From NCBI GenBank assembly GCA_025454955.1, contig JALONL010000026.1, forward strand, positions 24 to 64,023: a stretch of 64,000 bases of DNA. Direction: 5' to 3'. Below are positions 28,680 through 44,340 of the stretch, in pieces; position 1 is the stretch's first letter; each line of letters begins with the position of its first letter. This DNA comes from Bacteroidia bacterium. GTDB lineage: Bacteria > Bacteroidota > Bacteroidia > Palsa-965. The notes below the pieces were generated by a model, which had not been told where the DNA came from, made no database searches, and saw only the letters and a list, made by a program, of their open reading frames with translations. Both the position numbers and the translations under genes were made by a program.

Positions 28680-28750
28680 GTAGAGCGAAACTTCCGCCAC
28701 ATTTCTCCCGATACCTAATTTTTACCAAAGCCGCTTCAACCTCCTGAAGC

Positions 28751-31204: not shown

Positions 31205-32545
31205 TTAATCCAACGGGGGCAAAGGCATTAATTCAGGACGTAGGCCGGTGAAGTACCGGTTTTTTTCAGTCTGCAATTTCCCGTTTTCGATTTTCAGTAC
31301 AATATCGGGAATGTGTCGCCATTCCTGTTTACCGTGAAAATCGCCGCTTTTCACACTTTGCAGAATGGTAATGAACGCAGTCCCCGGATATTGTTCACGT
31401 AATTGCATAATTTCATTTACGCGAAGATTAGCAGCATTAGCAGAATCAAAAAACACAAAATCGTAATGCGCTAAATCCGGGGCTTTATCGAGCGACGGGG
31501 TGAAATGGATTAGGTTTATACCCTGTGCATTTACACGCTGAATAACCTGCTTTAGAGATTCCGAACGGTATTGCTCCGAAGAAATATACAACACCTTGCC
31601 GATGTTTTCAGCAAGGTATTTGGCAAAGTTGATGCTAAAGGTTGTTTTTCCCTGAAACGGTGCGCCGTAGATCATTAACCAGAAATTGTGTTCCGGGTTT
31701 CCTAACAGGCGTTTGTAATAGCCGGTAAAGGGCAAGGTTTCAAACTCCATTTCCGCCATTTGTTTAGCGGTCATTACCTGCGTATTTCTTACTTCAGGAG
31801 AAGGGATAAAACCCAATTCTTTTTTTTTTGAATTGTGTTTTAGACTTTTCTTTTTTTTTGATTGTTTGGAATAAGAAACAATACCGGCTAACCCGTTTAG
31901 CTGAACCTGCGGTACAAATACCGGTGTACGTTCGTCGATTGCTTTACGCAAGATATTCGCAGCTTTCTGCACATTAGAATAATAGGGATCAGTTGGTTTT
32001 ATTAACCCGCGTTCGGTGTAAAAATCCAACCGTTCAAGCAGTGTTTTTATTCGTGTGCTTACTTCACGGTACGGGATGCCGGAAACATTTACAAAAGCCT
32101 GTAAAAACTTTACGGAGGCACGGACTTTTTGACTGGTGGAAATGGTTTTCAGCCGTTCCACAAGATCGGCAGGGGCTTTAACCTTAACCGTATTTTCAGA
32201 AGCACCGTTATAGGCTTTCAGGGCGAACCGTTGTACTGTTTCCAGTTCATCCGCGTAGCGGTCTGTTTTACGAACTTTACGCAAGTGTATTGCCCGTTGC
32301 AGTGCTTTAATGAAATTGAGTAACCGGGTGAGCGGAACAGTTTTACCGATCATTGGTTTAAACCGTTTGAGCAGTTTTATTTGTTCGTCGATCATTTCCA
32401 CCTGTGCCGCTTTCTTTTTCTTCGGGGCTTTTGGTGTTTCGTCTTGTTCTTCTTCTTCTTCCGGTTCTTCGTACTGTTTTTTTACCGGGCGTTTCACTTT
32501 TTTAGTGATACGTCCCAGATCGTATTTACCAAAGTTTGAGTACAT
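31205..32545 (-). CDS. RecA/RadA(Sms)-fold ATPase with basic helical N-terminal region
   Basis: Walker A GAPFQGKT, VLYISSEQ, Walker B FVFFDS, HIPDIVL, KNRY. Confidence 0.8.
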   Translation of the reverse strand: MYSNFGKYDLGRITKKVKRPVKKQYEEPEEEEEQDETPKAPKKKKAAQVEMIDEQIKLLKRFKPMIGKTVPLTRLLNFIKALQRAIHLRKVRKTDRYADELETVQRFALKAYNGASENTVKVKAPADLVERLKTISTSQKVRASVKFLQAFVNVSGIPYREVSTRIKTLLERLDFYTERGLIKPTDPYYSNVQKAANILRKAIDERTPVFVPQVQLNGLAGIVSYSKQSKKKKSLKHNSKKKELGFIPSPEVRNTQVMTAKQMAEMEFETLPFTGYYKRLLGNPEHNFWLMIYGAPFQGKTTFSINFAKYLAENIGKVLYISSEQYRSESLKQVIQRVNAQGINLIHFTPSLDKAPDLAHYDFVFFDSANAANLRVNEIMQLREQYPGTAFITILQSVKSGDFHGKQEWRHIPDIVLKIENGKLQTEKNRYFTGLRPELMPLPPLD

Positions 32546-32561
32546 GAGAAATAGAAATAAA

Positions 32562-32589
32562 AACGGCCTTGCATGATTGCAAGGCCGTT
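32562..32589 (-). terminator. Intrinsic terminator
   Basis: AACGGCCTTGCA / TGCAAGGCCGTT stem with a T-rich tail on the minus strand. Confidence 0.7.
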
Positions 32590-32624
32590 GAGTGAATAGT
32601 AATTGATTTTGCGTTAAACGCAGT

Positions 32625-33338
32625 TTATCCCGTGTTGGAATGATTTTTTAACTGCGTTTCATAGATTGCCCAGAACGTGGCCAAAGCAGCAGCCGTAGTG
32701 CCGGTAGCTGCAATTACCTTTTTGCGTTTCAGTGCGCGTTGAAGTGTCCGTAAATCAATCAGGGTATAAGTAAACTTATTCCCGTACAGTTCACGGTGAC
32801 GGTGGCACATAGTAATAAATGCCGCGAAATCTTCTGCATTTGCAAACACCTGACAACCGGCAGAATTTCGATCAATTTGTAAGGTTGTGCCGGTTGCTTT
32901 TGCGCGGTGTATATTAATACCAAACCATCCGCTAACTTCATTTCCATTATAGAAATCTAATTCCGCGTCGCGGTCGTAATCTCTGATAACGGTTACTTTT
33001 CCCCTGCGTTGACAAAGGGCTGTGTATTTTCCCCGGTGCAAATCGAGTGCATATACATCACGATATTGCCCCTGTTTCAAAATTGCCGTTCCTTGTGGTT
33101 GTCCGGGTTGACGCAGCCAGTAAGTACCGGGGTCTGTTGTGGCTTTGTAAATATGTAGTTTCCACTGTTGATTTTCCAAGCGATAAAACACACATATTGA
33201 ATCATCAAAATTATTTGGTACAGTGGAGGGTGAACGTAAACCGACTATGTTTAATTCATACGGACGACTGTAAACGGCATACTCTTTTTTCTGCAACAGT
33301 TTAATAAAAACGGTTGCATTTAACTTGCTGTTCTCCAT
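32625..33338 (-). CDS. Putative cell-wall enzyme (YkuD/L,D-transpeptidase-like His-Cys motif) with C-terminal TM
   Basis: ATTDPG, GINIHRA...NSAGCQV, FTYTLID; hydrophobic C-terminal tail. Confidence 0.6.
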   Translation of the reverse strand: MENSKLNATVFIKLLQKKEYAVYSRPYELNIVGLRSPSTVPNNFDDSICVFYRLENQQWKLHIYKATTDPGTYWLRQPGQPQGTAILKQGQYRDVYALDLHRGKYTALCQRRGKVTVIRDYDRDAELDFYNGNEVSGWFGINIHRAKATGTTLQIDRNSAGCQVFANAEDFAAFITMCHRHRELYGNKFTYTLIDLRTLQRALKRKKVIAATGTTAAALATFWAIYETQLKNHSNTG

Positions 33339-33808
33339 ATCGGGAATAGATTTTCTTCGAGATCGTCCCCCCGTTCAAGATCAACCATACTATCGAAGTT
33401 GTCCGCGTAAAACCGCATCCAAGCAGGGACGTTGAAACCCGGCTTTGTATCACCAGAACCGATTTTATCAGCACCAATTAACAAAGCATTCGGAAACAGT
33501 TCGTGCAGCTCTCTCAACTTTTTGTAAAGCACATACGTTTGTAACAGGGTGCGGGTATCTTCCATTTTACCCCGGTAGTTTATACCACCTTCATAAGCGA
33601 TATGCACACACTCAACAGGAAAAGATGAAAGGCTAAGGGTTTCCACATTACAGCCCAACAAACGCACACATTTACCCCATCTGTCAATGATGATGTGAAA
33701 TGCAGGGCGTTGATGTTGAGCAATGCAATTTTTGTATAGTTGTTCTGCTTCTACTTCGGGGCGTGTCATGGTAGCATGAACGAGAATATAATTAACAGGA
33801 CGTAACAT
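33320..33808 (-). CDS. T7-lysozyme-like N-acetylmuramoyl-L-alanine amidase, probably catalytically degenerate
   Basis: YILVHAT, FHIIIDRWG, IAYEGG, DTRT..Q, FPNA. The usual GHRD and CP Zn-ligand motifs read GADK and KP. Confidence 0.7.
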   Translation of the reverse strand: MLRPVNYILVHATMTRPEVEAEQLYKNCIAQHQRPAFHIIIDRWGKCVRLLGCNVETLSLSSFPVECVHIAYEGGINYRGKMEDTRTLLQTYVLYKKLRELHELFPNALLIGADKIGSGDTKPGFNVPAWMRFYADNFDSMVDLERGDDLEENLFPIWRTAS

Positions 33809-33888
33809 AGTTTTAGTTTTTATTTACAGTTGATGAGTAAAGACAAACCGCGCCGCAACTGTAAACGTGCGCGGTTTGTCTGTAACAA

Positions 33889-34860
33889 TCAGGCGTATTT
33901 GATATGCTCGGTTTGCACATATAATTGAATGCCGTCTATGGTTTCAAAATGTGTAATGCCGTTGCTGCTGAAAAGTTCGTAACCGATAATGGTTTGATTT
34001 CCCACCTGTACGCTGTGTTTGGCTGTTCGCCAAACAACGGTAGGACGTGACGTAATTAACGCCCTGCGTTCGATGCCTGAAACTTCATTACCCGGCACGT
34101 ACCATTTACCGTCTTTTTTCTTCAACCCGATAGAAATAAAGGCAAGGTTTAACTTGTCTTTATCGGCAGAATTTTTGAACACTTCCAAAAGACCGGTAAC
34201 GATGGTTGTATTTTTCCCGTTAATCAGTCCTTTAGGTTTGAAAATGGTGTTTACTTCATTGTATTTCTGCGGTGTTTTAATCAGTGACAACGCAGCTAAT
34301 ACAGGTTCAATTTTTTGAGCCTTTGCACCCTTGTAAAGCATTTCTGCAATATCCTCAGCCGGGGTATTGGTTAAGAGTTCAAAATGCTGCTCAGTGATAA
34401 CCGTAGGCCAGCCCAATTTTTCCAATGCTAACTGAGTTTTTGAGCCAAAATCACCATCGGGAACAAGTGTTATTCCGGTGATACTTTTGCGCGTGTTCAG
34501 CAGGTTTTGCAACTGCTTTACTTTCGCCCCGGTTGAGCCTTTCCGCAGGGGAAAATCGGATGTGGGTTTTACATTGTTTGCCGATGCTCCGGCAGATGCC
34601 GGGGGAACTTGTGCTGTGTTGTTTTTCGTTGGAATAGTAACCACTGGCGGGGTATCTAAATTGATCTTAAACTTTCCGGCGTTTTCATCTTCGCCGTTAT
34701 TAAAAAGATCGGCTGCGGGTTTACTTGAACGGCGGGTAATGTACCAAGCACCGTAACCCAACGCCCCTAAAACGAGCAATCCCAAAAACACGCGCCCCGG
34801 TGTAAAAAATGGCTTATCTTCTTTGCTCATTTTTTGCGGGAAATCGCTTTCATCTTTCAT
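33889..34860 (-). CDS. Membrane-anchored protein with peptidoglycan-binding domain
   Basis: N-terminal TM; PLRKGSTGAKVKQLQ...DGDFGSKTQLAL is a PG_binding_1-like motif. Confidence 0.75.
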   Translation of the reverse strand: MKDESDFPQKMSKEDKPFFTPGRVFLGLLVLGALGYGAWYITRRSSKPAADLFNNGEDENAGKFKINLDTPPVVTIPTKNNTAQVPPASAGASANNVKPTSDFPLRKGSTGAKVKQLQNLLNTRKSITGITLVPDGDFGSKTQLALEKLGWPTVITEQHFELLTNTPAEDIAEMLYKGAKAQKIEPVLAALSLIKTPQKYNEVNTIFKPKGLINGKNTTIVTGLLEVFKNSADKDKLNLAFISIGLKKKDGKWYVPGNEVSGIERRALITSRPTVVWRTAKHSVQVGNQTIIGYELFSSNGITHFETIDGIQLYVQTEHIKYA

Positions 34861-34861
34861 G

Positions 34862-35536
34862 TTATTTCTTTTTTGACAAAATCCGTCGGGCTTCTTCGAG
34901 TTCGTCAGTGTCGAGTTGTCCCTCCAGATAGTCGGTTAAACTTTCGTAGCCGATTTGCGGATTGTTTGCTATTGCTTTACTGAGCAATGCGGCTGCGGTG
35001 AAATCGGGCAATTCCCACAGCACACGGTAAATTTTATCTTCGTCTGTGTTAAACCAGCTTGCCGCTTCACGTAAACGGCGCAGCCAGTCGGGTAACAGTT
35101 CATAAGATGGTTTACCGTTTTTATTTTCCGGTTTTGCGGAAATAATGTTTGTTAAGGTTTGCCGTTCTTCTCCCCCTACATCGTCCGTTATTGCTGCATC
35201 TAACGTTTCATCGTATGCCTGTTTATAGAGATCTGCAACGCGGTAAAAATCGGTTTGGTTGGGTATGTCGGCATAAGCCTCATACAACAAATTTTCATTC
35301 GTACCGCCCCCGTCAACGGCTTCGTATATGTCGGAAATAATGTTTGCTAAACTGCCTTCGATGGCTGCGCCACGCAATATTTTTTCCGCACGTTTTTTTT
35401 TCAGGTGACGGTTGTAAAAATACCCGCCCACACCGCCGATAATCAGCACTGTACCGGCAACAAATAAACCGATCTTAAAATCCGGGGGAACGTTTGACCA
35501 GAACCCGCCGGATGCGGGTTGTTTTTCGGTTTCCAT
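34862..35536 (-). CDS. Membrane-anchored protein with two annexin-like repeats
   Basis: TM, then IYEAVDGGGTNENLLY...Y...Y...L...I and LREAASWFNTDEDKIYRVL, compared with the annexin consensus L..A..G.GTDE..L..IL. Confidence 0.65.
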   Translation of the reverse strand: METEKQPASGGFWSNVPPDFKIGLFVAGTVLIIGGVGGYFYNRHLKKKRAEKILRGAAIEGSLANIISDIYEAVDGGGTNENLLYEAYADIPNQTDFYRVADLYKQAYDETLDAAITDDVGGEERQTLTNIISAKPENKNGKPSYELLPDWLRRLREAASWFNTDEDKIYRVLWELPDFTAAALLSKAIANNPQIGYESLTDYLEGQLDTDELEEARRILSKKK

Positions 35537-35567
35537 TTATCCGGTTTTTTGATTGTTTTACTTTCGT

Positions 35568-35750
35568 TTACATACGCAGTGCAGCACGCGCCATTGCTAA
35601 TTTTGCTTTGTCGTTTTTTGCAATGTGTGCAATCATTTCAAGATCAGAAACGGTTAACTCATTTAAGAGTGTATTAACGGCCTGGGCTTTACGTGTTGCT
35701 TCGGTTTCCGTGTTTGCGCGGATGGTTAATTCAAATTCAAGTGCTACCAT
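35568..35750 (-). CDS. Small hypothetical protein
   Basis: 60-aa ORF that fills the gap in a tightly packed co-oriented cluster. Confidence 0.6.
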   Translation of the reverse strand: MVALEFELTIRANTETEATRKAQAVNTLLNELTVSDLEMIAHIAKNDKAKLAMARAALRM

Positions 35751-35768
35751 AATTCAAGCTATAAAGGG

Positions 35769-36644
35769 TTAAACATTAGCGGGCATTTCGGGAGTGTCCG
35801 CCGGATTTGTTTGTGTTGTTGTTTCAGGCTTTACAGTGCTTTTTACTTGCTGTTCTGCGGTGAGCCGTTCAATCAACTGTTTACGCTGTTCGATAATATC
35901 CGAAAGCCATACACTAACTGCGGGTATTAAATCTTTCGTGTCTTTCAGTACGGCAAGCACCTGTAAAATTTGTTCCTGTTCGTGTTCAGAGAAAAAACGC
36001 TGCAAGGTTTTTGCAAGTTCGGCGGCTTTGGTTGTAGCCTCGTTTTCTGTGGTGGTTTCACCCTTAACTTTTATTGTCGAGGCCGGAACACCTTCAATCG
36101 GTTGCGCGGTTGTACCTGCTTCGGGAAGGCTTAGCCCGGACGGATTACCCATCAGTAAACCGGCAATCGTCTTAACCATATCCATTAATTGAGAACCGCT
36201 TTTGTTTTGTGCGCTATGCACCAAAATTTCAACTTCGCTAATCTTACTACGCAGCAAATTGTTTTCACGTTTAAGGCTGTCGTTTTCCTTCTTCATAAAC
36301 GTGTATTCAATCTCCAACGTAATCTGTCGGCGCATTTCGGCTAAATCTTCTTTCGGGCTTTTGGTTTCCGTCCCGCTCAGACTTTCTTCATATCCGTTCA
36401 ACATCAATTCATATTGAATGGTATTAAAACTCTTGTTTGGGAAAATAACCAGTGTAAGGGTTTTATTAAACTCGTTGAGTTGGTTGTTCACCAGATCAAA
36501 CATTCGTTTATCTTGTGTACGCGGTGTTACCGGTGTACCATCAATGCGGATTGAATACCCTGCATCATCGTTGTATGAAAGATAATTTACAATAATGTTG
36601 CGTAAGAGTTCAATGTTACTTTCGTTATACTGCATCCGTTGCAT
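35769..36644 (-). CDS. Hypothetical coiled-coil protein
   Basis: Central heptads (KKENDSLKRENNLLRSKI); N-terminal domain paralogous to 36647..36919. Confidence 0.75.
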   Translation of the reverse strand: MQRMQYNESNIELLRNIIVNYLSYNDDAGYSIRIDGTPVTPRTQDKRMFDLVNNQLNEFNKTLTLVIFPNKSFNTIQYELMLNGYEESLSGTETKSPKEDLAEMRRQITLEIEYTFMKKENDSLKRENNLLRSKISEVEILVHSAQNKSGSQLMDMVKTIAGLLMGNPSGLSLPEAGTTAQPIEGVPASTIKVKGETTTENEATTKAAELAKTLQRFFSEHEQEQILQVLAVLKDTKDLIPAVSVWLSDIIEQRKQLIERLTAEQQVKSTVKPETTTQTNPADTPEMPANV

Positions 36645-36646
36645 AG

Positions 36647-36919
36647 TTATGCGTTGTTTTTAGGTTGTAAATTGATTTTATACCGTGCAATTATTTTATG
36701 TCTGTAATAGATAATAAAACATACTGTACGGGCATCAGGGGAAGAATAAAACAGATAATCGCCAAAGTGTGAAAGGCTCGTGGTGAGCGGAACAATTTCT
36801 AATCCGTCAACTTCTACACGATAAGCGCGTTTATATTTCTCCAAATGATTAGCGGGTTTTAAGGCAGTTAAAATTTCGCGTAATGCGTTAACTGAAAAAT
36901 TACTTTCGTGTAGCTGCAT
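36647..36919 (-). CDS. Hypothetical protein, paralog of the N-terminus of 35769..36644
   Basis: YRVEVDGLEIVPLT aligns with YSIRIDGTPVTPRT. Confidence 0.65.
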   Translation of the reverse strand: MQLHESNFSVNALREILTALKPANHLEKYKRAYRVEVDGLEIVPLTTSLSHFGDYLFYSSPDARTVCFIIYYRHKIIARYKINLQPKNNA

Positions 36920-37241
36920 AGCCTTTTCTTTTTGAGGGAATCAGAATTACCACACGCAGCAGTAATATACCGGATGAACGGTTAATCATCTTTATCGTGC
37001 CGCTGTGTTCGTGTTGTAATTCATTAATTCGATTATCCATTAAATCGTAAATACCCATCTCCGAACTAATCAAAAATTGCGGAGGTATGTTATCTTCTAA
37101 AAACCAGAACTGGCCGGGTGCTTTGAAGGTTAACGCTTCATTTGCCTTGAAACGTAATTCACGAAACAGCACCGAAAAACTGGCATAGTTGCGTAAACTC
37201 ATTTTCTGGTTAATGAGTTGTTGAATGAGTTCAATTTTCAT
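36900..37241 (-). CDS. Hypothetical beta-rich protein (candidate virion protein)
   Basis: Overlaps both neighbours; alternating hydrophobic strand pattern. Confidence 0.6.
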   Translation of the reverse strand: MKIELIQQLINQKMSLRNYASFSVLFRELRFKANEALTFKAPGQFWFLEDNIPPQFLISSEMGIYDLMDNRINELQHEHSGTIKMINRSSGILLLRVVILIPSKRKGYAATRK

Positions 37242-37656
37242 TTTCGAGATAGGTAAAGGTGAGTGTCAGACGAAAGCCTGAAAGCGAGGGCGAAGTTTCA
37301 AACCGGGCATTGAGGTACGGCTCTAAAGCCGGAATGTCTAAAGTTTGTCCCGTGAGCCTTGCCCCGCTAACAGGCATTAATCTGATTTGATCGAGATAAC
37401 AGTACGGCGGTACTTTCGGAAACCACGTTATTTGACCGGTAAACCGGATTTGGCTTTCGTACCATACCCCGGCAGAATTGTGAAGGGTTAATAACCCAAC
37501 TTCAAGGTGTCGTAAATCGTAATCTTTTGCCAGTGGTTCAGCCGTCGCAACAAGGGAAATAATTCTTTCCGTGTTGGGGGGGAAATCAATAACAAAGCAA
37601 CGGATTTGCCCGTTAAAGTTGATCTGTTCAGTATGGACGAAAAAACGTGTTTTCAT
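37231..37656 (-). CDS. Hypothetical beta-sandwich protein (candidate single jelly-roll minor capsid)
   Basis: Strand pattern parallels 37656..38033; translationally coupled. Confidence 0.55.
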   Translation of the reverse strand: MKTRFFVHTEQINFNGQIRCFVIDFPPNTERIISLVATAEPLAKDYDLRHLEVGLLTLHNSAGVWYESQIRFTGQITWFPKVPPYCYLDQIRLMPVSGARLTGQTLDIPALEPYLNARFETSPSLSGFRLTLTFTYLENEN

Positions 37657-38033
37657 TAGGCCGCCGTTTTGGTTGCTTTTACATATAGTGAAACCCGATA
37701 GGGTGTAAATGGAGCATTTGAATTATCCGAATCGGTGTAAACGATTTTTATTTTTCCGTTCAACACCGGTGCATTTTCAAGGGTGTAGTACCGTTTATCT
37801 ACCGGGGTATTTATGCCCGACATCAGTAGTTTACTCTCGTAATTGTCCGGGAAATATTCAGCCCCGTTTATTAGCAATCCCTGTTCTCCCCGGTAGTACA
37901 GCATTTCGTCGTAATTGCTTGTTAAAGCAATCCCGTTAATGGTTTGAATATCTTTATCGAGTTCAAAATCCCGGTTGTATGTTTGTTCGGGTGAATCAAT
38001 TTGAATATCAAACCGTTTATAGACTATTTTCAT
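37656..38033 (-). CDS. Hypothetical beta-sandwich protein (candidate single jelly-roll capsid or penton)
   Basis: All-beta pattern: FELDKDIQTINGIALTS...YRVSLYV. Confidence 0.55.
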   Translation of the reverse strand: MKIVYKRFDIQIDSPEQTYNRDFELDKDIQTINGIALTSNYDEMLYYRGEQGLLINGAEYFPDNYESKLLMSGINTPVDKRYYTLENAPVLNGKIKIVYTDSDNSNAPFTPYRVSLYVKATKTAA

Positions 38034-38064
38034 TGTAGTACAGGATTAACCGTTAAGAGAAAAA

Positions 38065-38090
38065 CACGGCGGCGAATTTTCGCCGCCGTG
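38065..38090 (-). terminator. Intrinsic terminator right after the candidate major capsid gene
   Basis: CACGGCGGCGAA / TTCGCCGCCGTG followed by TTTTTCTCTT on the minus strand. Confidence 0.75.
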
Positions 38091-38096
38091 CCTCCA

Positions 38097-38828
38097 TTAA
38101 GGTGTGGTGATTGTTCCGTGCAGACCAACAAACAGTACTGTATTTGCCGCAATGCCAGCCATTGTGCCGAGTTCGATTGTAAATTCAATATTTACATCGT
38201 CGTGAATCAAACGCGGGTTAGACAACTTGTAATAACCTGCGGGAACGCCGTTGAAATTTTCTGTGCAAAAATGGCGGTTTGATGTGCCTTCGGGTACAAT
38301 CGCTTTTTTGTTTGCTTTGAGCGAAAACTCACCGCTTGCAATAGCCGGAATGTTTTCAATTCCGTTAAAGGCTGTACGCATTACATCCTCTTTACCAGTC
38401 GTTGCAGAAACACCGGCCAAAAGAATAATACCCGAAACAAGCAACACCTGATTTTTGGGCAAACGTGCTTCGCTGATGGTACGCAGTCCTACTTCTTTTG
38501 CGTCCTGCGGTTCAAACATTTTCACCGTTTTACTGTTCACCGGTTTGATCGAGTAAACGATGGTATCCGCTAAACGCAGATCGTTTTCTTTCAACTGCTT
38601 TGAAACGTGCGCGGGCAATTCGCGGAAATGCTTTTCCATTTCAGCGCGTGAACCTTTGCTTTGAACCTGTGAGCCTGCTATTTTATTCATAACAACGGCA
38701 CGTTTTACCGGGTTCATTTTTGCAAGCTCGCCGAGCAGTTCGTTTGAAATGTTACTTTCATCCACACCGTACAAAGCACCTGCGTTATTATATGGGCTGT
38801 TTTCAATGCCCTCTAAAAGAGTATTCAT
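38097..38828 (-). CDS. Candidate major capsid protein (helical N-terminal arm plus beta-sandwich)
   Basis: 243 aa, with the C-terminal ~160 aa beta-rich (RLPKNQVLLVSGIILL...IEFTIEL...VLFVGLHG) and strong hairpins on both sides of the gene. The functional call is an inference. Confidence 0.5.
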   Translation of the reverse strand: MNTLLEGIENSPYNNAGALYGVDESNISNELLGELAKMNPVKRAVVMNKIAGSQVQSKGSRAEMEKHFRELPAHVSKQLKENDLRLADTIVYSIKPVNSKTVKMFEPQDAKEVGLRTISEARLPKNQVLLVSGIILLAGVSATTGKEDVMRTAFNGIENIPAIASGEFSLKANKKAIVPEGTSNRHFCTENFNGVPAGYYKLSNPRLIHDDVNIEFTIELGTMAGIAANTVLFVGLHGTITTP

Positions 38829-38849
38829 GTTGATTGAAATTTGAGTGAA

Positions 38850-38873
38850 TAGGGACGGGTTAACCCGTCCCTA
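38850..38873. other. Perfect 24-bp palindrome in the leader of the candidate capsid gene
   Basis: TAGGGACGGGTTAACCCGTCCCTA. Confidence 0.8.
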
Positions 38874-38901
38874 AAATCATGGTTAAACTGTGTGCAGTTG
38901 C

Positions 38902-39702
38902 TTACAGGTTACGACCGCCGGAGAAGGTGTAAAAATCTTCGTCGGTTTCTTCTGTTTGCGGTGTTGCACTCAGTGAGGGAGTTGATACCGTCGCGGGAAT
39001 AAATTCACGCTGTTGAGTATCAAAATCACGCGCAGAAACTTTTAACTGATCTTCTAAGCGTGAAAGTTGTTTCATGTCTGGATCATCGCGGAACGCATCA
39101 CCGGCCACAAATACATCTATTTCACCTAATCCGCTTACCGGATTTTGTGCAACAGTGGGAACGGCTGTTCCCGGTACTGTGTTCGGTGCAGGTAATGCCG
39201 TTTTATCGGCTTTGGGCTTAAAGATTTTATCCAGATACAAGCGATAGGTTAAATCTTCTTTTATTTCGGTAGCAACTGATTTAAGTTTGTCGGCAGTGCT
39301 CATGTTTGCATCAACAGCACCTAAACCAACACCAGAAGCCCCGCCAATCATCATACCTATGCCAAAATGAACTAAAGGACTATCACCCATATACAGCCGA
39401 TCTTCGTTTTTGTAAAGCGGGTTTAAACCGCTCAACGCCGGGGCTGTATCTGTTTGACTTGCGCCTAATCGTTTTTGTTCGCGGTTGATGGTTTCGTGCA
39501 AACTGTTGACTTTTCCCGCTCCATAGGCTGCTAAACCCAAATACAAAGAGGAACGCCCAACAAGTCGAGCCGTTAACCAACCACCTGCAACACTTGCCAA
39601 ATCTGTAACCACAGGCAACCAAAGTTCTTTTGCCTGTTCGCTCATACTACCTTTTAACCGTTCCAGACGTTCAATGTCTGCTGACTTTTTAGAATTAGCC
39701 AT
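38902..39702 (-). CDS. Hypothetical Gly-rich membrane-associated protein
   Basis: Gly/Ala-rich hydrophobic segments; LSGLN, VSGLG and FSGG motifs. Confidence 0.7.
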   Translation of the reverse strand: MANSKKSADIERLERLKGSMSEQAKELWLPVVTDLASVAGGWLTARLVGRSSLYLGLAAYGAGKVNSLHETINREQKRLGASQTDTAPALSGLNPLYKNEDRLYMGDSPLVHFGIGMMIGGASGVGLGAVDANMSTADKLKSVATEIKEDLTYRLYLDKIFKPKADKTALPAPNTVPGTAVPTVAQNPVSGLGEIDVFVAGDAFRDDPDMKQLSRLEDQLKVSARDFDTQQREFIPATVSTPSLSATPQTEETDEDFYTFSGGRNL

Positions 39703-39718
39703 TACGTTAAAAATTGTG

Positions 39719-41281
39719 TTACGCCGCTAAGGGTAAAAACTGAATAGGTGTTACCTGTGCAGGGCTATCTATTCCGTTCATTCCGTTTACGGCTTTCTGT
39801 TGTTTTTGCTTGCTTAAATAATTATACCCGCCCCAAGCAAGCAGGGCAATCGCAGTAAGCCCTAAAACGGCTGTTCCGGGGTTCTGCTTTACCCATTCAA
39901 TCGGGCTATCGGTAAATTTCACCGGTTCGGGTTCAGGCTCTTTTGCACCTGCGTTTCCCGGTGTTCTCAGGTTGGTGTTTTCTTCGGGTGTAATACTTTC
40001 AGAAACTGCGTTTGCATTGTCGCTGTTAGCATCACCGTTACGGATAGCACCAATTTTTTTGAGCAGTTCGTTTAGTGTCGCAATGGCGGCACTGGCTGCG
40101 GTTAATGCAGCCGCCGTAATCGGTTCACCCAAACCATTTAAAGCCGTTGGATTTTCCCGTGCAAACAAATCTTCTCCCAATACTTCACTTAGTTGAGCAG
40201 TGGTTAAATCACCGAAACCAGAAAAGATAAGCCCGCTTACTTCTTTTGCTTCGTTGCCTTTACCGGTTAAAATAGCTTCGCGCAAATTTTCTTTCATGCC
40301 ACCGGCACTATAAAAAATTGCCTCCAACTTATCCCTAACCGTTTTTGCCTTTTCCCAACGTTCCATATTTAAGCCCTTTTGCCGGGCTTGTTCCGGTGTG
40401 AGGTATGTCCATTTCAACCGACCTGCTACATTCAACACGTTTAATTTCATTGAAGCAAGCAGACCGTTTCGCAGTAATACAGTAGCCGGGTTTGCCCGGT
40501 TAACAGCGTGAACAACTTTCTTAATACCGCCGCCTTTTTCTTTGGGTTCGTCCTTTTGCTTTTCCTTCCGGTTAAACAATTTGAGTTTTCCCAAATCTTC
40601 ATTTTCGGTAGCTGTACCTTGAAAGCTGTTTTGTCCTTCTTCCTCGTTATACCAATAGGAATTTTTAAAATCGTATTGGTCAACGCCGTTTAAATATTGC
40701 AGTTCCATTATTAAATGGTCTTCTTTATCAGTATATGGCTCTTCGTAGTCGAAATATTCAGTAACACAATCAATAATGATCTGTTCGCCGCCAATGGTTT
40801 TTACCACCGGGTAAATGTGCTGAAATCCTATTCCCCCGTATTTTGTAATCCGATTAACTACTAAGAATTTCCAACGGGTTAGCTTTTGTACGTTCATCAG
40901 CACACTATCTATGAATGTGGTAAAGCAATCGCAATCGCCGTAACCATCACTAAACAGCCGTGCAGGACTTCTTACCTGTTCTTTTCCCGTTTGGTCTTTC
41001 TCATAGCGGATATGCGAATAAATCCAAACCCAAATTGCTTCACACGTTTGCCGAAGTGTAGGCCGCAAAATGTAGCGGGCGAAACGTTCAGATTCCGGCA
41101 ATGTGTTTTTTACAATCGTTTTAATTAATGCAAGTGTATCGGGTATGTCTGCATCTTTAGAAACTGTAATTATTTCACCTTTTGAGGGTAAAAATAAATC
41201 AGCATATCGGGTTCTGTTTTTCAGCACACGGCGGGCGGTTACTGTTCCGGCATTACCGAGCCAGTTGTTAACCGTTTCCAT
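39719..41281 (-). CDS. Transglutaminase-like (Cys-His-Asp) protein with C-terminal TM; candidate maturation protease
   Basis: IW.WI...IRY..D...EQVRSPAR...GDCDC, FQHIYP, IIIDC; TM near the C-terminus. Confidence 0.72.
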   Translation of the reverse strand: METVNNWLGNAGTVTARRVLKNRTRYADLFLPSKGEIITVSKDADIPDTLALIKTIVKNTLPESERFARYILRPTLRQTCEAIWVWIYSHIRYEKDQTGKEQVRSPARLFSDGYGDCDCFTTFIDSVLMNVQKLTRWKFLVVNRITKYGGIGFQHIYPVVKTIGGEQIIIDCVTEYFDYEEPYTDKEDHLIMELQYLNGVDQYDFKNSYWYNEEEGQNSFQGTATENEDLGKLKLFNRKEKQKDEPKEKGGGIKKVVHAVNRANPATVLLRNGLLASMKLNVLNVAGRLKWTYLTPEQARQKGLNMERWEKAKTVRDKLEAIFYSAGGMKENLREAILTGKGNEAKEVSGLIFSGFGDLTTAQLSEVLGEDLFARENPTALNGLGEPITAAALTAASAAIATLNELLKKIGAIRNGDANSDNANAVSESITPEENTNLRTPGNAGAKEPEPEPVKFTDSPIEWVKQNPGTAVLGLTAIALLAWGGYNYLSKQKQQKAVNGMNGIDSPAQVTPIQFLPLAA

Positions 41282-41768
41282 CACTTGAATTTTTAATCAG
41301 CGTTATCGGGAACAGCCATTCTTTACGTTTGGAAATCGTACCGAATAAAAGCCGTGCAAAGCAGATCACCTTTACCTGAATTTGTAAACCGGCTTTGCCA
41401 TCTTTTAAGGCTTTAAATACTTCTATACCTAAAGCCAAAACCTGTGCAAGCGGTATTACAATTTCAAGCGGTTTTAGCGCCTGTTCCGATTGTGCTGTTA
41501 ACTGTATTTCTGAATTATCCGACTGTGACGTGCCGAGCGTGACGTTTGCCTGACTGAGCAGGGTTAAAAAAGGATAGCTGAACGTAAAATCTGAACGTGT
41601 CGGGTTCTTTAGTAACACGTTCAACAGTACGTGTACACCGTCCGTTTTTATGCTGTGCAAACGTCCGGTTACAATTACCTGTATTTCGTCTGCATCCTTT
41701 TTTAACCGGCTTACATATCCTGCGGCCAACGCCCCGCCCCCTGCAAGTACAAGCAATGCGGGTAACAT
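41268..41768 (-). CDS. Membrane-anchored LEA_2/WHy-like protein
   Basis: N-terminal TM, LNVLLKNPT motif, beta-rich body. Confidence 0.55.
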   Translation of the reverse strand: MLPALLVLAGGGALAAGYVSRLKKDADEIQVIVTGRLHSIKTDGVHVLLNVLLKNPTRSDFTFSYPFLTLLSQANVTLGTSQSDNSEIQLTAQSEQALKPLEIVIPLAQVLALGIEVFKALKDGKAGLQIQVKVICFARLLFGTISKRKEWLFPITLIKNSSDGNG

Positions 41769-41774
41769 GATTTT

Positions 41775-42002
41775 TCAGTTTTGGTTTTTGTTTTCGTCGT
41801 TGTTGTCGCCGCGTTTACGGGCGTTCTGGTGTTTGAGATAATCCGCCCACACCTGAAAAGTGAGCCAAACCACGCCACCGATAACCGTTTTTAATACATA
41901 GATCAAAAGGGTTTCATCGGGGTTAATGGTCAAAAAATTAAATACAGCTCCGAAAACTAAAGCTGTCCACACCGTACCGAGTTGATTAATTAGCGTATTC
42001 AT
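41775..42002 (-). CDS. Small two-TM protein (holin-like), first gene of the structural cluster
   Basis: Two hydrophobic helices and a charged C-terminal tail. Confidence 0.55.
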   Translation of the reverse strand: MNTLINQLGTVWTALVFGAVFNFLTINPDETLLIYVLKTVIGGVVWLTFQVWADYLKHQNARKRGDNNDENKNQN

Positions 42003-42050: not shown

Positions 42051-42130
42051 TGTTTGGCGGGATATGTCCCGTTAATGCGCGATGTGGCGTAATACGTCGT
42101 TATATGGCGGGATTTGGCGGGATATTGGGG
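42051..42130. repeat. Array of 10-bp-phased degenerate direct repeats upstream of the structural cluster
   Basis: tgtttggcgg/gatatgtccc/gttaatgcgc/gatgtggcgt/aatacgtcgt/tatatggcgg/gatttggcgg/gatattgggg. Confidence 0.7.
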
Positions 42131-42182
42131 TTAATGATTATTCATTTAATGAAGTATCTTTAATTTCTATTAAGTAAATCCT

Positions 42183-42722
42183 ATGGAGACAGCAATATTA
42201 ACAACAATCATTAGCGCAATACCGGCAACATTATTAGCCGTTTATTCACTTATTCGGGTGCGCAAAAATTCAAAAGAGGTTGAAAAATTTAAAGCTAAGT
42301 ATCAACGAACTAATTTTACTCATCAATTACAGTTTCAAAAGGAGTTCAATATTTATTCTGAACTATGGGAACTTACAATTAAATTAATTGATTCAATTTC
42401 AAAACTTACAAGGACAGATAATAGGGGCAATCTTCAAAATTCAATACAATTAGTCGATTTACTATTTCAAGCTAACATAGATCTGAAAAAATACATTTTA
42501 GTTAATAAGCCTTTTTTTTCGGAAACTATTCATAAAGAACTAAAAGATACAAGTATGTGGATTTCTCGCGCAATTAAAATTCTGGCAGAAAGATCAAACA
42601 TTACAGAAAATGAGTTCAATAGTAAAGTAAATGAATTAGAAAAGGAACTTGACTTACTTGCCGAAAAAATATCACTCGCAATAAAAAATCGAATTACAAT
42701 AAACGATGAGGCACACAATTAG
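42183..42722 (+). CDS. Very AT-rich accessory protein with N-terminal TM
   Basis: 179-aa helical ORF on the opposite strand to its neighbours. Confidence 0.7.
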   Translation: METAILTTIISAIPATLLAVYSLIRVRKNSKEVEKFKAKYQRTNFTHQLQFQKEFNIYSELWELTIKLIDSISKLTRTDNRGNLQNSIQLVDLLFQANIDLKKYILVNKPFFSETIHKELKDTSMWISRAIKILAERSNITENEFNSKVNELEKELDLLAEKISLAIKNRITINDEAHN

Positions 42723-42731
42723 TTTAATTAA

Positions 42732-43034
42732 TTACCGGTGTAGGAACTTTTCTAAATCATATTTTTCGATCAGTTCATTGATATAACCGTGTTTCTCTAA
42801 CCACAAATAGGATTTGTAGTACTTGCTCGGCGGCATATACACCGTGAAAATAATTAGCTGTTGAACAGGGGTGTAATAATGTCCTTCTTTTTTCCCTGTT
42901 GCATCTTGCATTCTCAAACGCTGAAACGTTCGCTGAAGTGTACGTATAGGGGTGTTGTACAATTCAGATAAGCCCGGCATGTGAATTTTTTCCGTAGGGA
43001 AAGGGAGTTCAGAGGGCATATTTTCGGGGTACAT
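42732..43034 (-). CDS. Small winged-HTH DNA-binding protein (DUF4248/MerR/Xis-like)
   Basis: GLSELYNTPIRTLQRTF...YYTPVQQLIIF pattern. Confidence 0.55.
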   Translation of the reverse strand: MYPENMPSELPFPTEKIHMPGLSELYNTPIRTLQRTFQRLRMQDATGKKEGHYYTPVQQLIIFTVYMPPSKYYKSYLWLEKHGYINELIEKYDLEKFLHR

Positions 43035-43372
43035 AATTTGTTCATTTTAGGGTGTCTGTTTTTTTGTTACTGCTTAGTAATTAGGGGAGGGTTAAAGCGG
43101 GGTAATCTTAAAACATATACCGGTTAGGATTTTAGTTTTTGTTCCTTAACGTTCCATTAACGTTTGACGGTACAGAATGTTACTTGTTGGAAATGCTAAA
43201 TTTTCCAAAAACAAGACGTTAAAAAAATTATTCCGTTTGCTCAGGCGAGTGTTTGACAGGCATTTTTGTAGCGTTTTTATGTGTGTTTGTTGTACTGTAT
43301 TTATCGTAGTTAGTGCAAAATGATGATAGAGTTATCAATTAATGATTGTGAAATTATATCCTTATTGTATGC

Positions 43373-43416
43373 AGTGAGTACGGAGTGAGTGCGGAGTGAG
43401 TACGGAGTGAGTGCCG
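43373..43416. repeat. Four tandem 11-bp repeats AGTGAGTRCGG
   Basis: agtgagtacgg/agtgagtgcgg/agtgagtacgg/agtgagtgccg next to AT-rich DNA. Confidence 0.85.
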
Positions 43417-43515
43417 GAAACACCAGTAAATACAAGCACCTGTTTTTTGCTTTGATCTGAATTGTAATAGAAATATCCAGTATTCATAGGGGGAAAACGG
43501 GTTTTTAGGCGTTTA

Positions 43516-44049
43516 TCAATTAAAAATGAATTGTTCGGAATGGTGCAGGGTACAATAACTTCCGATTTGTTCTAAACCCTTTTGCAAGGCATACACACTA
43601 ACCAAAAGTTCACCCGGTAAATCGCTTTCCCGTTTTCCTGATTTTTCAGTTTTATTGATCTGTTTTAGGAATAAGAAATACAGTTCACGCAGTACATAAA
43701 ATTTCCAAACCATACGCTGAATGTATTGCCGGTTTACCGGTGGATAATCCATTGTTAGCGTGTAATCTTTTGCGACATCTTCTAATTTGGTTTGCATTTC
43801 AGCCGGGGTATCACCATTTGCGCGACAAGCTGCGGTAATAAAAAGAAGATCATCTAACCGGCGATCATTTACATACTGTTTAATACTGTGATATAAATTA
43901 CTTGCTTGGTTACATATCCAGTCTAATTCGGTTGCAAAATTGGTACGCACTCGCTGTAAACGATTGTACAAAAGATGTGCTGCACGGTTTACGTTTACAT
44001 TGAATTGGTCTAATTCTGCCGGGACGTAATTTGCTGCTGCTGCTGACAT
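43516..44049 (-). CDS. Hypothetical helical protein
   Basis: 177-aa ORF with no recognised motif. Confidence 0.65.
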   Translation of the reverse strand: MSAAAANYVPAELDQFNVNVNRAAHLLYNRLQRVRTNFATELDWICNQASNLYHSIKQYVNDRRLDDLLFITAACRANGDTPAEMQTKLEDVAKDYTLTMDYPPVNRQYIQRMVWKFYVLRELYFLFLKQINKTEKSGKRESDLPGELLVSVYALQKGLEQIGSYCTLHHSEQFIFN

Positions 44050-44130
44050 AGGTAGTAGTTTGTTATTTGGGTTAGTTCTTTGGTTTTCTTAACACAAAGT
44101 ACCGGGCTTTTCTCTTTGGTTTTTAGAGCA

Positions 44131-44220
44131 TATCGCGCAGCTTTGCGACATTCTGCGCCAAATCGCGCCAAATTGCGCCAACTGATGCAAATACAGGCCA
44201 AAGCCCGCCATTTAGCGACC
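44131..44220. repeat. Second 10-bp-phased repeat array (GCGCCA core)
   Basis: tatcgcgcag/ctttgcgaca/ttctgcgcca/aatcgcgcca/aattgcgcca ... aagcccgcca/tttagcgacc. Confidence 0.7.
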
Positions 44221-44296
44221 TTAATAAATCAAATGAGATTAGTAATTGAAAAATGAAAGTCGCAACAAAAAATATTTTTCGAGTAAAAAACCGAGC

Positions 44297-44340
44297 AAAA
44301 AAAAACGGCAGAACGCTAACCCCTTAACGTTCCGCCGTTT
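44297..44340 (-). terminator. Terminator hairpin whose loop carries a 16-nt motif shared with 46399..46414
   Basis: Minus strand reads AAACGGCGGAACG-TTAAGGGGTTAG-CGTTCTGCCGTTT followed by a T-run. Confidence 0.7.

Follow-up and report, generated by a model that had tools for sequence, protein, structure and literature searches.

Three consecutive minus-strand genes lie near the middle of a 64,000-nucleotide Bacteroidia sequence (the window, meaning the whole stretch of DNA analyzed). Their products have 243, 125 and 141 residues. A preliminary description based on the letters alone proposed that all three are candidate single-jelly-roll proteins and that the largest would resemble sphaerolipovirus-type capsids. 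Do these genes build a virus shell, and if so, of what kind? The three open reading frames are arranged as described and the six peptide motifs quoted from them are present in the translations. We favor, at a probability of about two in three, the interpretation that the element carrying them is a provirus, and that its virus, tailless and with a capsid of single jelly rolls, belongs to an undescribed family. The support comes from the structural models and their viral neighbors, the paralogy of the two smaller proteins, the predicted self-association of the largest, the conserved gene order, the mobility of the element and a hairpin 3' of the largest gene.

The 243-residue protein and the hairpins around its gene

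The 243-aa protein (38097-38828, minus strand) is the candidate major capsid protein (MCP). Its AlphaFold (AF2) model (pLDDT 93.3, pTM 0.84) has a helical N-terminal arm (residues 1-80) in front of one β sandwich with eight strands (residues 85-243), in agreement with the proposal of a single rather than a double jelly roll. A structural search with the models, the check originally asked for, returned jelly rolls for the 243- and 125-aa proteins, and the look-alikes of the 243-aa protein are mostly virus shell proteins. The best solved match is chain 6oj0_T of the archaeal Sulfolobus polyhedral virus 1 (SPV1), taken to be its hexamer-forming capsid protein (Z = 8.7, rmsd 3.7, 148 residues aligned, helix 58-80 included), with SPV1 6oj0_A at Z = 8.5, followed by jelly rolls from PRD1-lineage and sphaerolipovirus capsids. 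Virus structural proteins account for at least 13 of the top 20 rows, judged by reading them, and the viral rows in the table include PBCV-1, EhV-201, faustovirus, ASFV, HCIV-1, HHIV-2, P23-77 VP17, STIV and others. These Z-scores are middling; the tool typically gives a best Z of 7-8 when no true relative exists.

At least 1279 protein clusters (E ≤ 0.001) belong to the family, and the dN/dS of the gene against a sister copy in the same genome is 0.053. A family profile built from 112 sequences gave no capsid match among PDB sequences (best E = 0.99), and Pfam, PHROGs, NCBIfam and PADLOC hold no family for the 243-, 125- or 141-aa protein. A three-copy fold of the 243-aa protein gave a self-association score of 0.74 compared to 0.00 for the best of three controls, with at least 80% of contacts agreeing between runs and a partner pLDDT of at least 78. 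The mark for self-association is reached by 20 of 30 solved homo-pairs and by 1 of 23 single chains, and was calibrated on two copies, whereas three were folded here. The predicted interface brings unlike faces together, with residues 158-225 of one copy contacting residues 85-154 and 189-243 of another. The prediction supports self-association of the 243-aa protein. As the MCP, its rolls would pack side by side and head to tail into ring-shaped capsomers, with the helical N-terminal arm facing the inside of the particle.

The jelly roll is a generic fold, and Ena spore-appendage subunits, TasA, GOLD and carbohydrate-binding domains also match at Z = 5-7. The block could accordingly be a non-viral integrative element whose jelly rolls build a fibre, an appendage or a cell-envelope apparatus that the wall hydrolases of the block insert. 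We regard this explanation as unlikely: most of the top structural matches of the 243-aa protein are shell proteins of viruses, and none of the three translations has an N-terminal signal-like hydrophobic stretch or, in a Pfam scan, a type IX sorting domain. The lack of a signal-like stretch fits cytoplasmic assembly.

The preliminary description had bracketed the 243-aa gene by hairpins, and both are real by sequence and by folding energy. The perfect 24-bp palindrome TAGGGACGGGTTAACCCGTCCCTA (38850-38873, minus strand) lies in the 73-nt leader, 21 nt upstream of the ATG, and the leader folds at -22.9 kcal/mol (z = -5.6), a value equaled by none of 200 shuffles. This upstream hairpin is lineage-specific, since a strong hairpin is found there in 8 of 83 relatives, and the palindrome may serve the membrane-protein genes upstream of it as a terminator or processing site. 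The second hairpin (38060-38095, minus strand) starts 1 nt after the 243-aa stop codon. Its 11-bp G+C-rich core stem is followed by UUUUUCUCUU, a stem and U run with the features of an intrinsic (factor-independent) terminator, and a consensus scan also lists it as terminator-like. The 63-nt spacer that contains it folds at -29.4 kcal/mol (z = -5.1; 0 of 200 shuffles as good). The 70 nt after the stop codon of related MCP genes fold at -15 kcal/mol or lower in 76 of 83 cases (z ≤ -2 in 72 of 83), and the same length after the next three genes folds strongly in 5 of 81, 8 of 83 and 2 of 79. This conservation after the MCP gene and rarity after the next three genes indicate that the hairpin is not a chance feature.

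The 73- and 63-nt spacers leave the 243-aa gene alone within a block whose other neighbors overlap or sit 2-16 nt apart. The downstream hairpin may act as a leaky terminator or an RNA-stabilizing end, and the coat protein could thus outnumber the vertex and downstream proteins. That it is conserved at this place, between the 243- and 125-aa genes, speaks against a pair of coat proteins made in equal amounts.

The 125- and 141-residue proteins

The 125-aa protein (37656-38033, minus strand) is modeled as a bare eight-strand jelly roll (AF2 pLDDT 84.3) and is the candidate penton (vertex) protein. Its structural matches include PHM (Z = 8.5), SPV1 6oj0_Z (Z = 8.2), STIV 3j31_P (Z = 8.2) and HHIV-2 6h82_b (Z = 8.0); PHM is a non-viral enzyme domain and stands level with the viral matches. 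The family comprises 457 clusters, a tblastn match was found in 82 of 82 related loci, and dN/dS against the sister copy is 0.054.

The 141-aa protein (37231-37656, minus strand) evolves faster (dN/dS = 0.21 against the sister copy) and is a candidate second vertex or host-recognition protein. Its start codon shares one base with the 125-aa stop codon (TAATG). A word-based search returned only three close homologues, and an iterated profile located the family in 83 of 86 MCP-bearing loci, with 84 of its 87 open reading frames directly downstream of the 125-aa gene. The two small families align over their full length (hhalign probability 77.1%, E = 2e-5, 109 columns), which indicates that the 141-aa protein is probably a paralogue of the 125-aa protein. 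In the ESM Atlas, which has no structure for it, the named clusters closest to it contain domains of the PM2 coat protein at 0.77-0.79, below the tool's lead level.

The claim of three jelly rolls therefore stands for the 243- and 125-aa proteins on confident AF2 models, and the 141-aa protein is a probable third member through profile paralogy with the 125-aa protein. A strand signature common to all three was also proposed. It holds for the small pair, in which ELDKDIQTINGIAL and DFPPNTERIISLVA, as well as YRVSLYV and FRLTLTF, fall in the same alignment columns. A sequence link to the 243-aa family is not significant (hhalign probability 0.8% and 4.9% against the small-protein families), and the motifs of the 243-aa protein sit in equivalent strands of the 125-aa protein by the order of secondary-structure elements. 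The 125- and 141-aa proteins would be made from one translationally coupled message and would probably build the fivefold vertices together, the former as the penton and the latter as an outer or host-recognition subunit.

The FtsK/HerA packaging ATPase is a core gene of sphaerolipoviruses, and a sphaerolipovirus build would assign the genes differently, with the 243- and 125-aa proteins as large and small coat proteins in mixed capsomers and the 141-aa protein as the penton. The 243- and 125-aa genes are adjacent and both strongly conserved (dN/dS 0.05 each), as this assignment would have it, and the matches to coat and penton chains of sphaerolipoviruses have Z = 6.1-8.0. The rapid divergence of the 141-aa protein is also like that of penton proteins; the HCIV-1 and HHIV-2 pentons share 20.7% identity (PMC6414509). 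We nevertheless consider this build quite improbable. The strong hairpin separating the two genes in relatives fits unequal amounts of the two proteins, and self-binding is predicted for the 243-aa protein; both lean against mixed capsomers. In addition, the block yielded no FtsK/HerA ATPase, and the detectable paralogues are the 125- and 141-aa proteins rather than the 243- and 125-aa proteins.

The surrounding block and its copies

The genes upstream of the 243-aa gene (38902-42002, minus strand) encode a membrane protein of 75 aa, a protein of 166 aa anchored at its N terminus, one of 521 aa that is anchored at its C terminus and has conserved Cys/His/Asp residues, and a second membrane protein of 266 aa, the membrane helices being read from the sequence. 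In 82 related loci, tblastn matched the 521-aa protein in 79, the 166-aa protein in 75, the 266-aa protein in 30 and the 75-aa protein in 11, with the order kept. Residues C118, C120, H156 and D172 of the 521-aa family are invariant in 10 sequences. The upstream proteins have no family match in Pfam, PHROGs or NCBIfam, and the 521-aa family profile gave chance-level matches only among PDB sequences. The several predicted membrane proteins of the block are at most suggestive of an internal lipid membrane.

The downstream genes (32625-37241, minus strand) comprise three for small conserved proteins (113, 90 and 60 aa) and five for larger ones: a coiled-coil protein (291 aa), a membrane protein (224 aa), a peptidoglycan-binding protein (323 aa), an amidase (162 aa) and an endolysin-like protein (237 aa), in an order that is the same in relatives. 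Their PHROG matches include the amidase phrog_822 (E = 4.5e-13), phrog_3000 (E = 2.6e-29), phrog_33083 (endolysin; E = 4.9e-15) and the endolysin phrog_1493 (E = 7.8e-5). The last gene common to the sister copy encodes a 446-aa ATPase (31205-32545, minus strand) with a RecA/RadB/KaiC/Sak4-like C-terminal P-loop domain. It matches phrog_6891 (E = 5.4e-27), weakly AAA_24, KaiC and DnaB_C in Pfam, RadB in NCBIfam below the cut-off (E = 8.3e-6) and a DnaB-like helicase in the PDB (E = 0.11). Most of its Atlas look-alikes, ATPases of ~210 aa, come from viral records, and a minority of the members carry AAA_24/AAA_25. The 446-aa protein itself looks like a RecA/Sak4-type replication or recombination protein.

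A regulatory region on the other side (42183-45976) contains unassigned small genes and two Cro/CI-type HTH genes (44484-44801, minus strand; 45707-45976, plus strand; HTH_3 E = 2.1e-7) that match PHROG transcriptional regulator or repressor families. The block, with its membrane proteins, cell-wall hydrolases and RecA-like ATPase, keeps the same order in 82 related loci. HTH/M78 repressor-type genes and a Dam methylase also occur among relatives, as do a replication initiator and a CI-like repressor. Pfam, PHROGs and NCBIfam detected no FtsK/HerA (A32-like) or terminase-type packaging ATPase among 16-17 block proteins by sequence methods that a very divergent one could escape. Terminase, portal and tail families were absent from 30 flank open reading frames of four loci and from the block of the window. 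Scans of the window and relatives returned no relaxase, coupling-protein or Tra family, and family scans of the element returned no rolling-circle Rep.

The source genome has three copies of the element. In one sister copy, C13, there is a gene for a tyrosine integrase (E = 3.7e-30), and two identical 18-bp direct repeats lie 25.7 kb apart, at C13:3949 and C13:29664. Nine genes compared between the window and sister copies all have dN/dS values of 0.05-0.21, showing that the element genes are under purifying selection. The two sister copies differ in which side of the block carries the integrase. An integrase, flanking direct repeats and repressor-type regulators, the features of a provirus, are thus found in the family through the C13 copy and the HTH regulators. 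The copy in the window has no integrase on its contig and no Dam methylase and is flanked by IS transposases; it may be immobile. The C13 repeat is absent from the window even with three mismatches allowed. Two type IX secretion cargo genes lie inside the element borders in this lineage, and giant SNF2/Strawberry-notch helicases or RadC occur in some element copies.

Searches of species genomes yielded 250 matching loci, almost all labeled Bacteroidota, and some genomes have two or three copies that have diverged from each other. Nearly all occurrences of the family lie within long contigs of chromosomal origin. One of the carriers is Puia dinghuensis CGMCC 1.15448, where an open reading frame on the opposite strand breaks up the block. 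IMG/VR contained two loci when searched with a closer alignment of the 243-aa family and gave no match to the 243-aa protein alone; by tblastn, none of 50,697 GenBank phage records matched the 243- or 521-aa protein. None of 31 whole contigs carrying the MCP gene has terminal repeats (0 of 16 and 0 of 15). In one metatranscriptome library, at least eight contigs among those listed fall on the stretch compared; the block accounts for seven, and two cover parts of it that include the 243-aa gene. These RNA data are assembled contigs, in which stretches without a contig carry no meaning, and they give a weak hint that the block is transcribed.

The provirus interpretation is weakened by this distribution, which includes no particle, free genome or virome signal, and by the failure to detect a packaging ATPase of the usual kind, the middling Z-scores, the tie with PHM and the state of the window copy. 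Several of these points bear on other explanations. The block might instead be a remnant, decayed or domesticated, that the host keeps for a different purpose (a transfer-agent-like particle, for example) and that has ceased to be an autonomous virus. The missing integrase and methylase of the window copy, the IS elements at its borders and the chromosomal setting of the family would suit such a remnant. We judge it highly improbable, because the sister copy with an integrase and flanking repeats, the diverged copies within genomes and the changing side of the integrase fit active mobile elements and not a fixed host locus. That neither a packaging ATPase nor free genomes were seen is also compatible with the non-viral integrative element considered above, as are the type IX cargo genes, the helicases and RadC; giant SNF2/Strawberry-notch helicases and RadC are also typical of conjugative elements. 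The scans found no relaxase, coupling-protein or Tra family, and the combination of repressor-type genes, integrase and lysis-type enzymes is the usual kit of a temperate phage. The provirus interpretation, in which the three genes would be the shell genes of an integrated tailless Bacteroidota virus, probably with an internal membrane lining, remains the one we prefer.

Relationship to known tailless viruses

The label "sphaerolipovirus-type" proved too specific, as the closest solved match is SPV1 (Portogloboviridae) and no FtsK/HerA ATPase was detected. SPV1 has VP4 hexamers and VP10 pentamers, both of single jelly rolls, over an inner lipid layer; it has no recognizable polymerase or replication-initiation genes, its assigned genes include no packaging ATPase, and it is described as non-lytic (PMC8459092). 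The chains of 6oj0 would be VP4 and VP10 as judged from their lengths. SPV1 gives the best solved match for the 243-aa protein and one of the top matches for the 125-aa protein. The element, like SPV1, combines a larger with a smaller single-jelly-roll shell protein; no packaging ATPase was found in it, and the two genomes are similar in size (about 20 kb). The element differs in its host, Bacteroidota rather than an archaeal hyperthermophile, in the absence of sequence similarity (8-11% identity in structural alignments), and in having a tyrosine integrase and lysis-type enzymes. The lack of a detected FtsK/HerA ATPase places the element closer in build to SPV1 than to sphaerolipoviruses. A hexamer/pentamer build like that of SPV1 is possible: SPV1 chains match at Z = 8.7 and 8.2, and a head-to-tail interface was predicted with three copies. 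We tentatively propose, at less than even odds, that the family is a bacterial counterpart of the SPV1 build: widespread temperate Bacteroidota viruses with homo-oligomeric single-jelly-roll capsomers, jelly-roll pentons and no packaging ATPase. If so, a supposedly ancestral capsid design, so far known from an archaeal virus only, would occur in both prokaryotic domains, and culturable hosts (e.g. Puia) would be at hand to test the origin of double-jelly-roll capsids.

SH1, HHIV-2, HCIV-1 and P23-77 (Sphaerolipoviridae, Simuloviridae and Matsushitaviridae) have two vertical single-jelly-roll coat proteins, a jelly-roll penton and an inner membrane (PMC6414509). The 243- and 125-aa models match chains of these four viruses at Z = 6.1-8.0, and the element shares with them single jelly rolls, neighboring capsid genes and many small membrane proteins. 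The sphaerolipovirus penton has an N-terminal helix before its roll, as does the 243-aa protein. The differences are the undetected FtsK/HerA ATPase, a conserved hairpin that separates the candidate coat genes, the predicted self-association of the large protein, and hosts in the Bacteroidota instead of haloarchaea or Thermus. Single rolls of PRD1/PM2-lineage coat proteins and pentons also superpose on the models (PR772 6q5u_A, Z = 7.8; PRD1 P3, Z = 7.4; PR772 6q5u_O, Z = 6.2), but the 243-aa protein has one roll, not two, and no A32-type ATPase was found.

To our knowledge, the Flavobacterium phages FLiP and phiCjT23 are the known tailless lipid-containing phages of Bacteroidota. The element shares their host phylum and, from its genes alone, their tailless build. 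FLiP is presented with a double-jelly-roll coat protein and without a packaging ATPase in Yutin 2018 (PMC5894146), which also attributes rolling-circle replication to the FLiP-related group. Both phages have circular ssDNA genomes. The FLiP penton (8a06) and coat protein (5oac) are among the weaker fold matches, and the element is like FLiP in lacking a detected packaging ATPase. It is unlike both phages in its single roll and in the absence of a rolling-circle Rep family from the scans.

Tailless jelly-roll bacterial viruses are few in culture and are overlooked by standard prophage and virome tools. The present family has no Pfam, PHROG or NCBIfam model, two IMG/VR loci and no GenBank phage, yet 250 loci in species genomes. 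If particles are confirmed, a major environmental phylum would gain a type of temperate virus that is common but overlooked, and single-jelly-roll, membrane-lined capsids would extend to Bacteroidota. The family would also provide a tractable system for DNA uptake without a packaging motor and for the relation between single-roll and double-roll capsomers.

A description of the element family was not found in the full-text literature, where coverage of subscription journals is thin. Three candidates from that literature are unrelated: the Flavobacterium prophage fF4 is a Mu-like myovirus (PMC7761591), the groups of Yutin 2018 are double-jelly-roll only (PMC5894146), and the marine "Charybdis" elements are about 4 kb with a different fold (bioRxiv 10.1101/2025.08.03.668216).

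Candidate jelly-roll proteins encoded by three consecutive genes

Three consecutive minus-strand ORFs encode proteins of 243 aa (38097-38828), 125 aa (37656-38033) and 141 aa (37231-37656); the stop codon of the 125-aa gene overlaps the start of the 141-aa gene by one base. The genes lie within a low-G+C island (~0.40 vs ~0.52) spanning about 28.8 to 54.2 kb, and none of the products matches Pfam, PHROGs, NCBIfam or PADLOC. AlphaFold2 modeled the 243-aa protein, the candidate coat protein, from an alignment of 112 diverse homologues with pLDDT 93.3 and pTM 0.84. In the model, helices occupy residues 1-80 and a single beta sandwich of eight strands occupies residues 85-243, in keeping with the single rather than double jelly roll proposed in the preliminary description. 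A search of 48,161 PDB representatives returned the capsid protein of Sulfolobus polyhedral virus 1 (SPV1, Portogloboviridae) as the top match (6oj0_T; Z 8.7, rmsd 3.7, 148 residues), and the alignment takes in the helix at residues 58-80. Single rolls of the PBCV-1, EhV-201, faustovirus and ASFV coat proteins come next, with HCIV-1, HHIV-2, P23-77 VP17 and the STIV turret further down; by our reading of the table, the first 20 rows include at least 13 virus structural proteins. Foldseek and a second-look alignment agree with this search.

The 125-aa protein, the candidate penton, is modeled as a bare eight-strand jelly roll (pLDDT 84.3). Its matches are less specific than those of the 243-aa protein and include PHM (Z 8.5-8.6), SPV1 6oj0_Z (Z 8.2), STIV 3j31_P (Z 8.2), HHIV-2 6h82_b (Z 8.0) and the PRD1/PR772 coat rolls (Z 7.3-7.8), values in a range where, as the search tool warns, a Z near 8 may reflect a common arrangement. 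For both models, the matches show the predicted fold and a leaning to capsid proteins; homology is beyond their reach.

Word-based searching detected only three relatives of the 141-aa protein. An iterated profile run on the ORFs of 88 fetched loci recovered members in 83/86 loci with a 243-aa gene, and 84 of 87 family members are encoded directly downstream of the 125-aa gene. Profile-profile comparison aligned the 125-aa and 141-aa families over 109 columns, nearly their full length (77.1% probability, E 2e-5), while none of the fourteen remaining pairs drawn from six small families exceeded 4.9%. All six peptide motifs quoted in the preliminary description are present in the translations. 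The strand signature it assigned to all three proteins holds for the two smaller ones, where ELDKDIQTINGIAL / DFPPNTERIISLVA and YRVSLYV / FRLTLTF occupy the same columns of the hhalign family alignment. By sequence its extension to the 243-aa family is not significant, since that family pairs with the small-protein families at 0.8% and 4.9%, weaker than the link between those two; model comparison places RLPKNQVLLVSGIIL and VLFVGLHG in matching strands of the roll, the third long one and the last.

When the 243-aa protein was folded as three copies, the score was 0.74 (runs of 0.74, 0.55 and 0.78), and the best of three controls scored 0.00. In a calibration on two copies, not three, the mark for this score was reached by 20/30 solved homo-pairs and 1/23 single chains. 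At least 80% of contacts agree between runs, and partner pLDDT is at least 78. The predicted interface sets residues 158-225 of one copy against 85-154 and 189-243 of the other, which are two different faces of the roll. These predictions support self-binding. The scored copy contacts the third copy at one confident residue only, a pattern that would suit a ring, or a lattice, of more than three copies.

Hairpins flanking the candidate coat gene

The palindrome reported in the leader of the 243-aa gene is a perfect 24-bp sequence on the minus strand (38850-38873), 21 nt ahead of the ATG, and the upstream spacer folds at -22.9 kcal/mol (z -5.6; none of 200 shuffles as good). The terminator reported after the stop is likewise present as a prediction: a G+C-rich stem with a U run (38060-38095, minus strand) begins one base past the stop, is terminator-like in a consensus scan, and lies in a spacer that folds at -29.4 kcal/mol (z -5.1; 0/200 shuffles). 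The remaining block genes overlap or are spaced by 2-16 nt. Among relatives, the 70 nt past the coat-gene stop fold at -15 kcal/mol or lower in 76/83 (median -20.8) and have z <= -2 in 72/83; the same criterion after the next three genes gives 5/81, 8/83 and 2/79. This downstream hairpin is characteristic of the family. Its U tail is less regular (10/75 by a strict rule), and the upstream palindrome is limited to close relatives of the window (8/83). The downstream hairpin might act as a leaky terminator or a stabilising 3' end, either of which would raise the coat-to-vertex ratio.

A wetland metagenome is the source of the genome. Eight listed short contigs from a single metatranscriptome library lie on the examined stretch, seven of them on the block (35632-35813, 37557-37785, 38167-38346, 38542-38829, 38945-39200, 39734-39931 and 41461-41730), and two metatranscriptome contigs are identical to the window. 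Such libraries can contain DNA and the contigs cannot rank genes; they are a weak hint that the block is transcribed.

The gene block and its relatives

The minus-strand block opens, in transcription order, with genes for a membrane protein (75 aa), an anchored protein (166 aa), a protein of 521 aa (39719-41284) and a further membrane protein (266 aa). Next are the 243-, 125- and 141-aa genes, and after them come two small proteins (113 and 90 aa), a coiled-coil protein (291 aa), a protein of 60 aa, a membrane protein (224 aa), a peptidoglycan-binding protein (323 aa), an amidase (162 aa; phrog_822, E 4.5e-13), an endolysin-like protein (237 aa; phrog_3000, E 2.6e-29) and, last, an ATPase (446 aa; phrog_6891, E 5.4e-27). 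Two Cro/CI-type regulators lie past the block end. The 521-aa protein has a C-terminal membrane anchor and no Pfam or PDB match by sequence. Its C118, C120, H156 and D172 are invariant in 10 diverse homologues, a Cys/His/Asp order that would suit a cysteine protease of the papain or transglutaminase kind, and the protein may serve as a maturation protease. By its matches the ATPase is similar to RecA/RadB/KaiC/DnaB/Sak4-type proteins rather than to FtsK/HerA. An FtsK/HerA ATPase is a feature of the sphaerolipovirus group (SH1, HHIV-2, HCIV-1 and P23-77), and family scans of the block did not find one.

The glycine motif [LIVMA][NSL]G[LMIV][GNSADE] occurs 12 times in 3483 block residues (31205-42002), mostly in the 521- and 266-aa proteins; this is 3.4 per 1000 against 0.52 in long genome ORFs, an excess inflated because the motif was defined after the sequences were seen. 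An 11-nt unit, AGTGAGTACGG / AGTGAGTGCGG, is repeated in tandem about four times (three overlapping 20-nt copies) at 43373-43414, between two small genes of the regulatory region, and might be an operator or iteron array. One contig from a freshwater DNA run joins 42125 to 42759, omitting 633 nt that carry a 179-aa plus-strand gene; therefore some variants of the element seem to be without this gene.

Relatives of the 243-aa protein form 1279 clusters at 90% identity (E <= 0.001) and 329 at 50%; the 125-aa protein has 457 clusters. A scan of 185,579 species (one genome per species) found 250 stretches encoding a 243-aa relative, the best 80 of which were fetched. The relatives are almost all labelled Bacteroidota (Chitinophagaceae, Sphingobacteriales, Flavobacteriales and others) and include one isolate, Puia dinghuensis; the few other-phylum labels look like binning errors. 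Tblastn of window proteins against 82 loci, with counts that are lower bounds because many loci are cut by contig ends, detected the 243- and 125-aa proteins in 82, the 521-aa protein in 79, the 166-aa in 75, the 113-aa in 65, the amidase in 61, the peptidoglycan-binding protein in 53, the 237-aa in 51, the 224-aa in 41, the 266-aa in 30 and the ATPase in 27. Matching genes keep a single order in the 45 loci listed, with stray regulator and small-gene matches elsewhere. Extra genes in relatives encode an HTH-M78 regulator, a Dam methylase, a CI-like repressor, a replication initiator and, in some, giant SNF2/Strawberry-notch helicases. Another copy in this genome, on contig C44, has a 1763-aa SNF2/Strawberry-notch-type helicase between the lysis-type genes and the ATPase (L088 2115-7406). 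In the Puia locus the endolysin-like gene is followed by a RadC-fused helicase of this type, at least 1313 aa long, that extends as far as the sequence fetched (L054 16779-20717), and an IMG/VR locus has an endolysin/M23-like gene (phrog_90, E 1e-45) between the coat and 125-aa genes (L001 10320-10859).

No terminase, portal or tail family was detected in the block or in the 30 flank ORFs scanned from 4 related loci. The element is read as a putative provirus of a tailless virus, with a probability of roughly 0.65. Tblastn of 50,697 GenBank phage records found neither the 243- nor the 521-aa gene in isolated phages, terminal repeats occur in 0/31 whole contigs, and no free or circular genome was found. 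Full-text searching, whose coverage leaves out most subscription journals, returned no published description of this element family. That a non-viral element uses these rolls to build another structure is unlikely: the three proteins have no secretion signal, the scans returned no conjugation family, and temperate phages commonly carry regulators and lysis-type enzymes of this sort.

Known from its genes alone, the putative provirus is closest in build to SPV1, which has hexamer-forming and pentamer-forming single-jelly-roll proteins and an inner lipid layer, and whose assigned genes do not include a packaging ATPase (PMC8459092). It also resembles the sphaerolipovirus group, in which two coat proteins of a single roll each and a jelly-roll penton bearing an N-terminal helix overlie membrane proteins (PMC6414509). 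The preliminary description favored this group over PRD1 or PM2. The single roll and the coat and penton matches agree with that choice, and the single roll rules out the PRD1, PM2 or FLiP kind; the preference for sphaerolipoviruses is weakened by the closer match to SPV1 and the lack of an FtsK/HerA ATPase in the block, and a sphaerolipovirus-like shell of two coat proteins is quite unlikely. Membership of either group has no support from sequence, as the 243-aa family profile gave no capsid match among PDB sequences; the hosts differ, and the FtsK/HerA ATPase of the sphaerolipovirus group was sought in the block and not found.

Copies, mobility and selection

The genome has three copies of the 243-aa gene: those in the window, on contig C13 (92% identical) and on C44 (50%). 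Window positions 31210-51995 have a collinear counterpart in the C13 copy, with identical gene order, and a tyrosine integrase (E 3.7e-30) adjoins the ATPase of that copy. An 18-bp sequence, repeated exactly and in direct orientation at C13:3949 and C13:29664, brackets the C13 copy between a host gene and the integrase and gives an element of ~25.7 kb. The C44 copy has an integrase and an excisionase-type HTH. The window copy has no integrase on its contig and no methylase, unlike its C13 sister with integrase and Dam methylase, and is therefore probably truncated. It is flanked by IS4-type (28974-30296, minus) and IS5-type (52341-53369, plus) DDE transposase genes and, with these losses, may be immobile. 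A 58-nt imperfect inverted repeat (72% complementary; 28750-28807 and 54195-54252) borders the low-G+C island; blastn-short detected no further copy in the genome.

Within the element, plus-strand genes at 46729-52275 encode two proteins: one of 1492 aa, which has a type IX secretion sorting domain, and a CHU_C protein of 333 aa. Their C13 counterparts (53% and 62% identity) lie within the 18-bp repeats, none were seen in distant relatives, and they may be cargo. The truncation raises the alternative of a domesticated remnant, which is very unlikely. All nine genes tested between the window and C13 copies are under purifying selection, with dN/dS at 0.053 and 0.054 for the 243- and 125-aa genes, respectively, and at 0.21 for the 141-aa gene.
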